Under the pieces are notes generated by a model that was not told where the DNA came from, made no database searches, and saw nothing but the letters and a program-made list of their open reading frames with translations. A stretch of DNA of 64,000 nucleotides from an uncultured Gammaproteobacteria bacterium (GTDB taxonomy: Bacteria; Pseudomonadota; Gammaproteobacteria; JASBUN01), in the NCBI GenBank assembly GCA_963849825.1, contig CAWKIK010000003.1, forward strand, positions 252,787-316,786. The letters run 5' to 3'. Shown in pieces: positions 5,303-9,857 of the stretch (position 1 is its first letter; each line of letters starts with the position of its first letter). Position numbers and translations under genes: made by a program.

Positions 5303-6895
5303 CTACAAGCTCATGCCGTGTTCACGGGTAGCGTGAAATTCGATTTCCGGAGCCCGCTCCATCGCCAAGTCCAAATTCACCCGCGTCGGAGCCAGATAGG
5401 TGAGGTTACCGCCGCCATCAACAGCGAGATTATCGCGCGCCTTGGTACGAAACTGATCCAACTTGCGTGGATCCTTGCTGCTGACCCAGCGCGCAGTGGC
5501 GACATTCACCGCTTCGAAAGTACAGTCGACTCCGTACTCGTTCTTGAGTCGAAACGCCACCACATCGAATTGCAGAACGCCTACAGCCCCGACAATCAGA
5601 TCGTTGTTGCGCAAAGGCCGGAAAAGCTGCGATGCGCCCTCCTCGGAAAGTTCGACCAAACCCTTCTGCAACGCTTTCAACCTCAGGGGATCGCGCAAAA
5701 CCACGCGTCGGAACAGCTCCGGTGCAAAATTCGGAATGCCGGTGAATTGCAATACTTCGCCTTCCGTGAAGGTGTCCCCGATTTGTATGGTACCGTGGTT
5801 GTGCAAGCCAATGATGTCACCAGCCCATGCCTCTTCCACATGTTCGCGTTCACTTGCCATGAAGGTGATGGCGTTGGCGACTTTTACGTCGCGGCCGATG
5901 CGCACATGACGCATCTTCATGCCTTTGCTGTAACGCCCGGAACACACGCGCAGAAATGCGATGCGGTCGCGGTGCTGCGGATCCATGTTTGCCTGGATCT
6001 TGAAGACGAAGCCACTGAACTTGTCCTCGGCCGGTTCGACCGTACGATCGATGGTTTCCCGCCCACGAGGCGGCGGCGCCGTCTCGACGAAGGTATCCAA
6101 CAATTCCTTGACGCCGAAGTTGTTGATCGCGGAACCGAACAATACAGGGCTCAGTTCACCCTTGAGATACGCATCCTGATCGAACGCGTGGCTTGCACCG
6201 CGTACGAGTTCGATTTCCTCGCGCAGTTCACCAGCCACGCCGCCGAGAATTTCATCCAGCCGCGGATTGTCCAGGCCGTCGATGACTTCACCGGACTTGA
6301 TCCGCCCACCATGGGTCGCACTGAACAAATGCACGTTGTCGCTGTAAAGATGATACACACCCTTGAAACCCTTACCCATGCCGATCGGCCAGGTGACCGG
6401 AGCACAGCGGATCTTCAGCACGTCCTCGACCTCGTCGAGCAACTCGACCGGCTCGCGACCCTCCCGGTCGAGTTTGTTGATGAAGGTGACGATCGGCGTC
6501 GCCCGCAACCGGCAGACCTCCATCAGTTTGATGGTGCGTTCCTCAACGCCTTTGGCGGCGTCGATGACCATCAACGCGGAGTCCACCGCGGTGAGCGTAC
6601 GGTAGGTATCTTCCGAGAAATCTTCGTGTCCGGGCGTATCGAGCAGGTTCACCAATCGGTCCCGATAGGGAAATTGCATGACCGAGGAAGTCACCGAGAT
6701 GCCGCGCTGCTTTTCCAGCTCCATCCAATCGGAGGTAGCATGACGCGCCGCCTTGCGGCCTTTCACGGTTCCGGCAAGCTGTATCGCGCCACCGAACAGC
6801 AGCAGCTTTTCGGTGAGTGTGGTCTTGCCCGCGTCGGGATGCGAAATAATCGCGAATGTTCGCCGGCGTTGGACTTCCTTGGGTAACACGGACAT
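5303..6895 (-). CDS. prfC: Peptide chain release factor 3
   Basis: [43 protein letters not shown]. Confidence 0.97.
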
Positions 6896-6978: not shown

Positions 6979-7443
6979 TCACAGGGGTAACGCCATAATA
7001 AGCGCGTCCTCCCGACCCCCTTTGGCGGGATAGTAGTTTTTACGAACTCCCACCTCGGAAAAGCCGACATGCTCATAGAGCGTCAGGGCCGCTATGTTCG
7101 AGGGTCGTACTTCAAGCAGCACCACTTCAACGTGCAGGCGGCGCGCCGACTCCACCAATTGCCGCAACATCATCCGCCCCAAGCCCTGCCGCTGGGAATG
7201 ACGATGCACGCACAGGTTCAACACGTGGGCTTCGCCGCCCCCGCTCGACATCACGCCATAAGCATGTATCGCGCCTTCGATCTCCAGCACCTGGCACAGG
7301 TATCCCACCCGCAGACAGTCTTGAAAAATCCCCCGGGTCCAAGGCTGCCGGTAACCCAGATGCTCGATCTCCATAATTGAATCCAGGTCGTCTTCGCACA
7401 TGCTGCGAAAGGCCGGCATCGAGCGGTCGAAAACGGCGCTCAT
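6979..7443 (-). CDS. rimI: Ribosomal protein S18-alanine N-acetyltransferase
   Basis: EAHVLNLCV, QRQGLG, LEVRPSN, RKNYY, EDALIM; ATGA overlap with the upstream gene. Confidence 0.92.
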   Translation of the reverse strand: MSAVFDRSMPAFRSMCEDDLDSIMEIEHLGYRQPWTRGIFQDCLRVGYLCQVLEIEGAIHAYGVMSSGGGEAHVLNLCVHRHSQRQGLGRMMLRQLVESARRLHVEVVLLEVRPSNIAALTLYEHVGFSEVGVRKNYYPAKGGREDALIMALPL

Positions 7444-8153
7444 TGCGGACTCCGCAGCAGTTCGCGGGCGATGCACAGGTCCTGCCACGCCTTGGCCTTG
7501 TCCTGAGGTGAACGCAACAGATAGGCGGGATGATAGGTCACCAGCACGGGCACATTCTCGGCTCCGAAGTGGTGAAACGCACCACGCAGGCGCGTCAGGC
7601 TGACCTGGGTATGAAGCAGATTATGAGCGGCGATTCGTCCCAGGGCGAGAATCAGCCTCGGCGCCACCAACTCCACCTGTCGGCGCAGATAACCAGCGCA
7701 TTGCTGTACTTCCGCAGACTCCGGATCGCGGTTGTTGGGCGGTCGGCACTTGAGAATATTGGCGATGTAAACCTGTTCACGTGCCAGACCGATCGCTCGC
7801 AGCATTTCGTTCAGCAATTGGCCGGCACGACCCACGAAGGGTTCGCCCTGGCGATCCTCATCAGCGCCGGGCGCCTCGCCGATGAGCATCAAGTCGGCGC
7901 GCACATCACCCGTTCCGAAGACGGTTTGGGTGCGGCTACGATGCAAATCGCAAGCCTCACAAGCGATGACTGCGCTACGCAGGGTGTGCCAATCGGCCTG
8001 CCCTACGGGTTGCGCGGACATCGGCGCCGGGCACTCGCCCGTCGGCGCAGACGCCGGGGGCCGTACCGTCGGCGCCCGGCTGCCTGGCAGGCGCTGTTCC
8101 CATACCTCGATATCCATCGCCGAGAGATAGGCTTGTCGTCGTGCCTCGTTCAT
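7440..8153 (-). CDS. Uracil-DNA glycosylase family 4 (Fe-S), with HolD/psi-like N-terminal peptide
   Basis: Cxx[31 protein letters not shown] motifs. Confidence 0.9.
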
Positions 8154-8176: not shown

Positions 8177-9727
8177 CTATACGTCAGCTGCCTGCGGATG
8201 GGCTCTTTGCACCGGATACATGATTTTATTCAACGCATTCAGATACGCCTTCACAGACGCGGTCACGATGTCGGTGTCCGAACCCTGACCGTTGACAACC
8301 CGACCGCCTTTGGACAATCGCACTGTCACCTCGCCCTGGGAATCGGTACCGCTGGTGATATTGTTCACCGAATAGAGCAGCAATTCCGTGTCGCTGTGCA
8401 CGACACTGTCGATCCCCTTGAACGCCGCGTCCACCGGCCCGCCGCCGACACCTGCAGCCGCGTGTTCCTGGCCGTCGATGCTCAGCGTAATCTGCGCATT
8501 GGGCATTTCCCCGGTTTCGCTGCAAACCCGCAAAGCCACCAGTTTGATGCGTTCATTTTCCGCTTCGAGGCTGGTTTCGGTCACCAACGCTTGAAGATCC
8601 TCGTCGTAGATCTCGTGCTTCTTGTCGGCGAGGTCCTTGAAGCGCGCGAAAACGTCGTTGAGCGCTTCTTCGGAATCGAATTCGATACCGATCTCCTTCA
8701 AGCGTGTACGGAATGCGTTGCGTCCGGAAAGCTTGCCGAGAACCATGCGATTCGCGCTCCATCCCACGTCCTCGGCGCGCATGATCTCGTAGGTTTCCCG
8801 GCTTTTGAGCACCCCATCCTGGTGGATGCCCGACTCATGGGCGAACGCATTGGCGCCGACGATTGCCTTGTTGGGCTGTACTGGAAAGCCGGTAATGTTC
8901 GACACCAGACGCGAACTGGACACGATTTGCGTGGTATCGATATCCACGTCGCAGGGAAATATGTCCTGGCGTGTGCGCACCGCCATCACCACCTCTTCCA
9001 ACGCGGCGTTGCCGGCGCGTTCGCCGAGACCGTTGATGGTGCATTCCACCTGCCGGGCGCCATGCATCACAGCCGACAATGAATTGGCGACCGCCAACCC
9101 CAGATCGTTGTGGCAATGTACCGAAAATACAGCTTTGTCGGAGTTGGGCACCCGCTCGATCAGGTCGCCGATCAATCGCCCGAATTGCTCCGGTACGTTG
9201 TAGCCCACGGTATCGGGAATGTTCACGGTACGCGCACCCGCGTCGATTGCTGCTTCGATCACCCTGCACAGGAAATCGAGCTCCGATCTGCCAGCATCCT
9301 CGGCCGAAAATTCGACGTCGTCGGTGAACTGGCGGGCGCGCTTGACCGCGCGCACAGCCTGCTCAACGACTTGGTCTGGCTCCATGCGCAACTTCATTTT
9401 CATGTGGATTGGCGAAGTCGCGATGAAAGTGTGGATGCGCGCAGACGGCGCATCCTTGAGCGCTTCTCCGGCGCGATCGATGTCTTTGTCCAACGCCCGT
9501 GCGAGACCGCAAACCGTGCTGTACTGGACTGTCTTGGCGACCGCCCGCACGGCTTCGAAATCGCCCTTACTGGCGACCGGAAAACCGGCTTCGATGACGT
9601 CGACCCGCATGCGGTCCAGGGCCTTGGCGATACGCACCTTTTCCTCTTTTGTCATGGATGCGCCGGGGCTCTGCTCGCCGTCACGCATGGTGGTATCGAA
9701 TATGATGAGTTTGTCTTTTCCGCTCAT
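8177..9727 (-). CDS. leuA: 2-isopropylmalate synthase
   Basis: [38 protein letters not shown] and C-terminal regulatory domain. Confidence 0.96.
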
Positions 9728-9857
9728 AACCTTGTGCTCCGATCGCAGGCTCAGTTTACCTGAGGCCATACGCTGCGCAAACCGGCTGGGCCGGTACTCG
9801 TAGGGGGACTGCGGGTGCGTGATTTACCCTCGCCAGGGTATGCCGAGTATCTGCCCG

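Follow-up and report, generated by a model that had tools for sequence, protein, structure and literature searches.

A family-4 uracil-DNA glycosylase at the holD position in an uncultured gammaproteobacterium: homology to the DNA polymerase III psi subunit and a putative place on the clamp loader

Which protein takes the place of the DNA polymerase III psi subunit (HolD) in a genome where the gene ahead of rimI and prfC codes for a complete uracil-DNA glycosylase (UDG) of family 4? The question is raised by a locus in a stretch of 64,000 nucleotides (hereafter, the window; positions 252,787 to 316,786 of the forward strand of contig CAWKIK010000003.1, GenBank assembly GCA_963849825.1) from an uncultured Gammaproteobacteria bacterium of the GTDB lineage JASBUN01. 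A preliminary description of the open reading frame (ORF) at positions 7440-8153 had proposed that its product, here called UDG-psi, joins the clamp loader and brings uracil excision to the replication fork. What that description observed of the ORF was confirmed in every particular, and the checks it had suggested turned out favorably wherever they were carried out. By sequence criteria, UDG-psi is a full member of family 4; it is also homologous to psi and its orthologue by position, although it lies below the Pfam threshold for psi. The reading favored here, to which a probability of roughly 0.6 is attached, is that UDG-psi is the psi (HolD) orthologue of the source organism, of an ancestral type that would be a catalytically competent UDG tethered to the clamp loader. 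The coding sequence and its three parts are as follows, in window coordinates:

7440..8153, minus strand: coding sequence of UDG-psi (237 amino acids plus a TGA stop), from the ORF list and the sequence; homologues share the same start Met.
8088..8153, minus strand: residues 1-22, psi-like N-terminal peptide, presumed docking element for the clamp-loader collar (PF03603, hhalign).
7992..8087, minus strand: residues 23-54, flexible linker rich in Pro and Ala, variable (alignment, predicted confidence of the AlphaFold2 model).
7443..7991, minus strand: residues 55-237, family-4 UDG core, including the C-terminal helix DKAKAWQDL common to psi (TIGR00758).

The first step toward an answer concerns the enzyme, whose core had been described as intact and proved to be so. 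The Pfam UDG model PF03167 matches residues 79-226 at 4.5e-40 (137.4 bits, cut-off 24.3), the NCBIfam model TIGR00758 (UDG_fam4) scores 220.4 bits (cut-off 125.3), and UDGA of Thermus thermophilus (1ui0) aligns across all motifs at 6.3e-46. The cysteine ligands of the 4Fe-4S cluster (C65, C68, C136, and C152), motif A (GEAPG, residues 92-96), N132 and motif B (HPAYLLR, residues 208-214) are all present, and the four cysteines and both motifs do not vary in a set of 30 homologues with identities of 57-88%. Among 110 relatives, i.e., UDG-psi of the window and 109 related loci, C65, C68, C152, E93, N132, and H208 are kept in 110/110 and C136 in 102/110. Since these residues persist throughout the 110 relatives, the pattern argues for a working UDG, and the conservation of both catalytic and Fe-S residues indicates selection on activity. 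In the remaining 8/110, Ser replaces C136, while the other three cysteines and all catalytic residues are retained; the replacement may mark the onset of decay or reflect an altered ligation of the cluster.

The second step concerns the extension that precedes this core. The psi-like character first ascribed to the N-terminus is upheld by the Pfam model DNA_III_psi (PF03603), which matches residues 4-24 of UDG-psi over profile positions 2-22 with a sub-threshold score of 17.0 bits (E 0.0072). Besides UDG, PF03603 is the only family that recurs in the 30-member alignment, 19 members of which match it at E ≤ 1 (best 5.7e-6). In one relative (L023, at G385 C1:4371557-4372333), an intact UDG-psi of 268 amino acids, PF03603 scores 22.4 bits over profile positions 2-106 and runs into the UDG core, so that the curated psi model detects the core similarity in some members. 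The peptide motif occurs in 106 of 109 related loci (88 in strict form, 18 as close variants), two of the three loci that lack it being truncated by a contig end. In the alignment of homologues the peptide is kept across proteins of ~58% identity whereas the adjoining linker is not; the linker varies in length and sequence, and its residues 31-45 have a predicted local distance difference test (pLDDT) value below 50 in the AlphaFold2 (AF2) model. Among relatives from the Burkholderiaceae (L133, L141, L155, L165, L170, and L173), the peptide has the form LxExGLxPxWVRR, and a linker of ~130-180 amino acids, rich in Pro and Ala, stands between it and an intact family-4 UDG. The N-terminal 30-mer gave zero matches at E ≤ 10 in a phmmer search of the PDB, and in the ESM Atlas residues 1-30 obtained scores of 0.85 and 0.82, the second from a cluster with PF03603 on 16% of its members; scores below 0.9 were treated as leads only.

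The homology to psi is carried mainly by the comparison of two alignments. The first (A2) is composed of 14 short psi genes that PF03603 retrieved elsewhere in the class and recognizes E. coli psi in the PDB (8giy_F at 2e-13, 3sxu_B, 1em8_B, and 3gli_O, a peptide of 27 residues, at 0.013), and the second (A1) represents the UDG-psi family. Aligned as wholes by hhalign, they matched at 98.6% (E 6.8e-16) over 87 columns, all of them in the core. Separately, the N-peptides matched at 97.9% (E 5e-13, 20 columns), the cores at 97.6% (E 4.3e-12, 88 columns), and the cores at 95.7% (E 9.6e-9, 85 columns) with a psi set of 11 sequences, from which the three retaining HPxxLL had been removed; a control with reversed psi columns yielded 0.7% (E 0.08, 12 columns) for the cores. 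The profile similarity to HolD that had been proposed as a check is thus found in peptide and core independently. On the strength of these profiles, both the N-peptide and the core are shown to be homologous to psi, a result that speaks of homology and not of binding.

Three blocks are common to psi and UDG-psi, namely LLxxMLxAIGL, an ILxxG strand and (H)PxxLLxxPxxKxxxWxxL. LLxxMLxAIGL, ILxxG, and HPAYLLR are general features of family-4 enzymes. The N-peptide and the K...W helix were not found in the solved enzymes of Thermus, Thermotoga, and Sulfolobus, and therefore constitute a specific link between the UDG-psi family and psi. Compared with UdgA (1UI0 of Thermus thermophilus, 1L9G of Thermotoga, 4ZBX of Sulfolobus), UDG-psi has the same fold (Z 25.6; TM 0.85-0.89), 40-43% identity in structural alignments and all motifs and Fe-S cysteines in common, but it differs by 55 extra N-terminal residues (docking peptide and linker), by a C-terminal helix, DKxKAWxDL, for which the solved enzymes show no conservation, and by its fixed position in a leuA-X-rimI-prfC cluster. 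Compared with psi (HolD; PF03603; PDB 1EM8, 3SXU, 3GLI, and 8GIY), it shares the N-terminal peptide YLxxMGIxxWxxR, the core, the C-terminal K...W helix, the slot before rimI and the co-occurrence with the chi subunit (HolC), and the distributions of the two are mutually exclusive. Unlike psi, UDG-psi is ~100 residues longer, has a complete family-4 active site and a four-cysteine cluster site, scores below the Pfam gathering threshold, and has a putative ability to bind DnaX or chi.

The third step is genomic position, for which the neighboring genes of the window are needed:

6979..7443, minus strand: rimI, ribosomal protein S18-alanine N-acetyltransferase (TIGR01575, 6.2e-35).
5303..6895, minus strand: prfC, release factor RF3 (Pfam GTP_EFTU and RF3_C), third gene of a holD-rimI-prfC-type order.
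8177..9769, minus strand: leuA, 2-isopropylmalate synthase (Pfam HMGL-like and LeuA_dimer), conserved upstream neighbor.

A gap of 23 nt separates the end of leuA from the start of UDG-psi, GAGG can be read from the sequence 5 nt ahead of the UDG-psi ATG, and the UDG-psi TGA (7442-7440) overlaps the in-frame rimI ATG (7443-7441) as ATGA; an alternative, longer rimI ORF is also open from a GTG at 7488. The ORFs, the Pfam and NCBIfam matches and the ATGA overlap place the UDG gene directly upstream of rimI and prfC, as described, and the K-12 annotation bears out the E. coli order to which it had been likened (holD-rimI-yjjG-prfC). The arrangement is widespread. In the 30 best UDG-psi loci, which come from 30 genomes of many GTDB families, rimI lies immediately downstream on the same strand in 30/30 and leuA upstream in 28/30. 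Among 20 loci of the short psi type (L007-L022, L024-L026, and L032), rimI is downstream in 17/20 (the exceptions being L019, L020, and L024) and leuA upstream in 7/20. Because genes of both types have rimI and leuA as neighbors, UDG-psi and psi occupy one orthologous position.

The distribution of the two genes was surveyed in 400 genomes drawn evenly from the class (Gammaproteobacteria of the GTDB, including Burkholderiales). The A1 profile matches 304/400 genomes at E ≤ 1e-10; its best 150 matches fall in 150 different genomes, 138 of them beginning at model position ≤8, peptide included, and the other 12 lying in longer frames of 228-327 amino acids. When a strong UDG-psi was defined by E < 1e-60 (283 genomes, ~70% of the sample) and a psi-like gene by a PF03603 match extending beyond the N-peptide in a short frame, with two pseudomonad-like long forms added (29 genomes), the two sets had no genome in common. 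The complementarity of holD and this UDG at the rimI locus, which had been proposed as a check, is accordingly seen as 0/283 strong UDG-psi genomes with a psi-like gene. Chi (PF04364) was found in 337/400 genomes, including 270/283 with a strong UDG-psi and 14/29 with a psi-like gene. A further observation is that 53 chi-positive genomes lack a strong UDG-psi and gave no psi match either; the models used probably miss chi proteins that have diverged or psi forms that are cryptic. Named relatives include members of Thiohalobacterales, Thiothrix, Chromatiaceae, Methylococcales, Steroidobacteraceae, Woeseiaceae, Ectothiorhodospiraceae, Nevskiales, and Arenicellales and, within Burkholderiales, of Paraburkholderia, Caballeronia, Trinickia, Pandoraea, and Mycoavidus. 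Names are given for 24 of the 120 homologues listed; each reads either “uracil-DNA glycosylase” or “DNA polymerase,” with no mention of psi.

The fourth step is the inventory of the source genome, the assembly of which is 100% complete. Across this genome, the sole match of PF03603 at E ≤ 10 is the N-terminus of the UDG-psi ORF, and the sole match of the A2 psi profile in all six frames is the UDG-psi core (E 8.6e-9, profile positions 54-133), the UDG-superfamily paralogues of the genome giving no match to that profile. The gene for chi is present (PF04364, 4.5e-45) on the same contig, 10.8 kb from the UDG-psi gene:

G000 C3:249042-249452, ~3.3 kb before the start of the window: holC (PF04364).

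Both halves of the earlier expectation, a holC gene and no holD other than UDG-psi, were therefore found in these searches. A similarly loose linkage of holC and UDG-psi, over ~11-21 kb, is seen in other genomes (e.g., G273, G119, G083, G160, and G184). The chi of the source organism is 33% identical to that of E. coli, and its F60 corresponds to F64 of E. coli chi, a residue that is invariant in 20 chi sequences and is placed in the chi:psi interface in PMC4636137. Three other genes of the UDG superfamily are present (L004, at G000 C1:230417-230872; L005; L006), namely one of the UdgX type (TIGR03914, 245.8 bits) and two with weak matches of family 4/5 type; none of them matched as a family-1 Ung. 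With no Ung and only UdgX-type or weak matches besides, UDG-psi may be the main uracil glycosylase of the source organism.

As to the direction of change, the proteins encoded at the PF03603-positive loci can be ordered in a graded series. At one end stand intact UDG-psi proteins (L023, L031, L033, and L034), followed by forms with an altered GEAPG or lost cysteines (L027/L028 and L035), then by short forms that retain VTYDTAYLLRTPKDKRKAFEDL or HPSHLL (L020, L026, L012, L018, and L014) and, at the other end, by a psi of E. coli type (L007); YLxxMGIxxW and KxxxW are retained in all members. Family-4 UDGs are known in archaea, Thermus and Thermotoga, as the matched structures attest. The simplest direction would be that psi is a decayed UDG-psi, because it is implausible that both catalytic motifs and the Fe-S site were regained in identical form, and the series lends support to the earlier suggestion that psi is a degenerate descendant of family 4. 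Jarvis et al., in 2005, reportedly described a long “cryptic” psi in pseudomonads. Like UDG-psi, this protein has a conserved extreme N-terminus, a long disordered region and a C-terminal globular core, and its gene lies upstream of rimI; the disordered N-terminal region is reported to bind single-stranded DNA (El Houry Mignan et al., 2011; PMC3197488). Unlike UDG-psi, its core is a degenerate psi fold devoid of UDG motifs, as judged from L036, the one locus of this type seen in the survey.

Predicted structures are compatible with this account. The AF2 model of UDG-psi (mean pLDDT 81.9; predicted template modeling score, pTM, 0.73) comprises a short N-terminal helix (residues 3-12), a low-confidence segment (31-45) and a compact core, which VIA-align superposes on 1l9g with Z 25.6 and a root-mean-square deviation (rmsd) of 2.3 Å over 185 residues, and which Foldseek matches to 4zby at 1.7e-21 and to 1ui1 with a TM of 0.89. 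In the fold search, E. coli psi (3sxu_B) ranks 19th (Z 6.4, rmsd 3.2 Å, 101/102 residues, 17% identity), directly below the rows of the UDG superfamily, as the first named non-UDG of comparable size; vaccinia D4 appears in the same list at Z 9.2. Modeled in turn, canonical psi (pLDDT 75.7) retrieves E. coli psi first, at Z 9.8.

Several observations weigh against the identification of UDG-psi with psi and have to be set beside the above. The Pfam match is confined to the N-peptide and its 17.0 bits fall short of the 22.2-bit cut-off of PF03603. BLASTP of E. coli HolD against UDG-psi yields three colinear high-scoring segment pairs with non-significant E values of 0.049, 0.13, and 0.12; as a single sequence against A1, E. 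coli HolD reaches 8.4% in hhalign, over the N-peptide only; and the A1 profile finds UDGs only in the PDB, with no psi chain at E ≤ 10. The C-terminal likeness to psi noted in the preliminary description is seen in the common (H)PxxLLxxPxxKxxxWxxL block; in the direct comparison, the C-terminus of E. coli HolD (...NPTARAALWQQIC) aligns to a segment of UDG-psi with the non-significant BLASTP E value of 0.12. In structure, 3sxu_B was matched, but the reciprocal search does not discriminate, UDGs being found by the canonical psi model at Z 5.5-6.3, tied with receiver (CheY-like) and Argonaute MID domains. The modeled fold similarity of UDG-psi and psi is modest, compatible with homology and not discriminating, and it is profiles, synteny and distribution, rather than fold, that carry the argument. 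Moreover, PF04364 has no match at E ≤ 0.001 in 13/283 strong UDG-psi genomes and in 15/29 psi-like ones, and all class counts come from related genomes, thresholds set after the data had been seen and hand-transcribed lists. These counts include G037, G115, G260, and G270, flagged as unpublished, on which no claim rests. Finally, on conceptual grounds, uracil excision from a single-stranded template at the fork could leave harmful abasic sites behind.

If UDG-psi is nonetheless the psi of this organism, its mode of action can be sketched in outline, with DnaX docking, chi binding and glycosylase activity all inferred. The N-peptide would dock in the tau3-delta-delta' collar, in the manner described in a review (PMC3290774) for the N-terminus of psi in the DnaX complex of E. 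coli. The linker would give reach to the UDG core, which would excise uracil and would probably hold chi through a surface inherited by psi; chi would in turn bind the tail of SSB. Uracil would thereby be removed or sensed at the fork or just behind it, close to SSB-coated DNA. The likely benefit would be that misincorporated dUMP or deaminated cytosine is promptly removed from DNA that is nascent or exposed on SSB, or, alternatively, that uracil in the template is sensed early.

Among competing explanations, the one that survives best, itself unlikely, holds that UDG-psi docks on the clamp loader through its peptide and does not bind chi, the partners of which would be others, for example a helicase of YoaA type. 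The strong homology of the N-peptide (97.9%) speaks for this view, a detectable chi is missing from 13/283 strong UDG-psi genomes, and E. coli chi is also found in a separate complex with YoaA (PMC4636137; PMC9826845). However, chi accompanies UDG-psi in 270/283 genomes, the UDG-psi core has its homologue in that part of psi which binds chi, both families have an invariant C-terminal K...W helix that the family-4 enzymes of Thermus and Sulfolobus lack, and the chi residue that matches F64 is invariant.

It is quite unlikely that UDG-psi is an ordinary UDG of base-excision repair, with an extension of other or no role, a shared ancestry with psi and nothing more, and an organism devoid of functional psi. 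The relatives named (24 of 120 listed), called UDG or DNA polymerase and never psi, would fit such a view, as would the sub-threshold Pfam match and the statement in a review (PMC3290774) that only some gamma-proteobacteria have psi. Against it, the peptide is conserved in 106/109 loci and across ~58%-identical proteins in which the adjoining linker is not, its counterpart in psi is precisely the clamp-loader-contacting segment, residues 1-55 have no counterpart in the solved family-4 enzymes, and psi-like genes are excluded from UDG-psi genomes (0/283). A psi-type adaptor only, whose UDG fold is a scaffold with catalysis absent or irrelevant, is a highly improbable alternative: lineages that have lost catalytic residues evidently retain a functional psi, so that a scaffold role can stand alone, and vaccinia UDG, i.e., D4 in its processivity role, has a catalysis-independent part in replication (PMC1936997), but the catalytic and Fe-S residues are kept in 110/110 relatives (C136 in 102/110), and UDG-psi is possibly the main uracil glycosylase of a genome with no family-1 Ung match.

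Uracil excision is associated with replication elsewhere as well. Eukaryotic UNG2 binds PCNA and RPA at replication foci, and an archaeal family-4 UDG binds PCNA. In these systems, as proposed for UDG-psi, uracil excision is tethered to the replication machinery by a short terminal peptide; the tether there reaches the sliding clamp or RPA by PCNA-interacting-peptide (PIP)-type motifs, whereas the peptide of UDG-psi resembles the clamp-loader-binding segment of psi. In viruses, a uracil glycosylase is a physical part of the replicase (vaccinia D4 with A20; gamma-herpesvirus UNG), as presented in PMC1936997 and PMC5934625. These enzymes are family 1-like, have other partners and serve as polymerase processivity factors, whereas UDG-psi would be an accessory subunit of the clamp loader, and the recruitment of viral UDGs and that of UDG-psi are evolutionarily independent. 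A literature search retrieved no paper linking psi or HolD with UDG, subscription-only articles and much of the PMC text lying outside its reach.

Outside the class, family-4 homologues from other classes of the phylum (L187-L200) are also N-terminally extended, in frames of 220-365 amino acids, with motifs such as YLREIGVQTP, LLxFYxxxGVDxALxExPxDRF or YLExxGVxxLxGD followed by a linker; in an alphaproteobacteria-like group, PWRPPGNR stands instead of KCRPPNNR, with the loss of two cluster cysteines. These classes have chi and no known psi, and rimI was not found within ~700 nt of the L187-L200 loci. Compared by hhalign with psi peptides, the N-terminal motifs reach 3-28% in two alphaproteobacteria-like groups and 48-73% in a third group. 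An extension of the psi-type peptide beyond the class was considered on this basis and is left as unproven, the similarity being weak (3-73%). From the extended enzymes of other classes, a yet earlier origin of the arrangement may be suspected.

As for its wider meaning, the finding touches on an old puzzle. Genes for chi are found in alpha-, beta-, and gamma-proteobacteria and those for psi only in gamma-proteobacteria, as reported in PMC3290774, so that the link between chi and the clamp loader is open wherever chi occurs without psi outside the gamma-proteobacteria. UDG-psi offers a concrete candidate for this link, present in ~70% of the sampled genomes of the class. There is about an even chance that psi began as an active Fe-S UDG of family 4 on the clamp loader, that it is still such an enzyme in most lineages of the class, and that psi of the E. 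coli type is the relic of it, a pseudoenzyme. If so, the replisome of most lineages of the class would carry a uracil glycosylase of its own, which would explain why chi is seen without psi, and psi would provide a clear case of an enzyme turned scaffold. An Fe-S repair enzyme would then reside inside a bacterial replicase, as a counterpart of UNG2 with PCNA and RPA and of the viral UDG subunits, and the annotation of a very large family, with >8000 matches named only UDG or “DNA polymerase,” would have to change.

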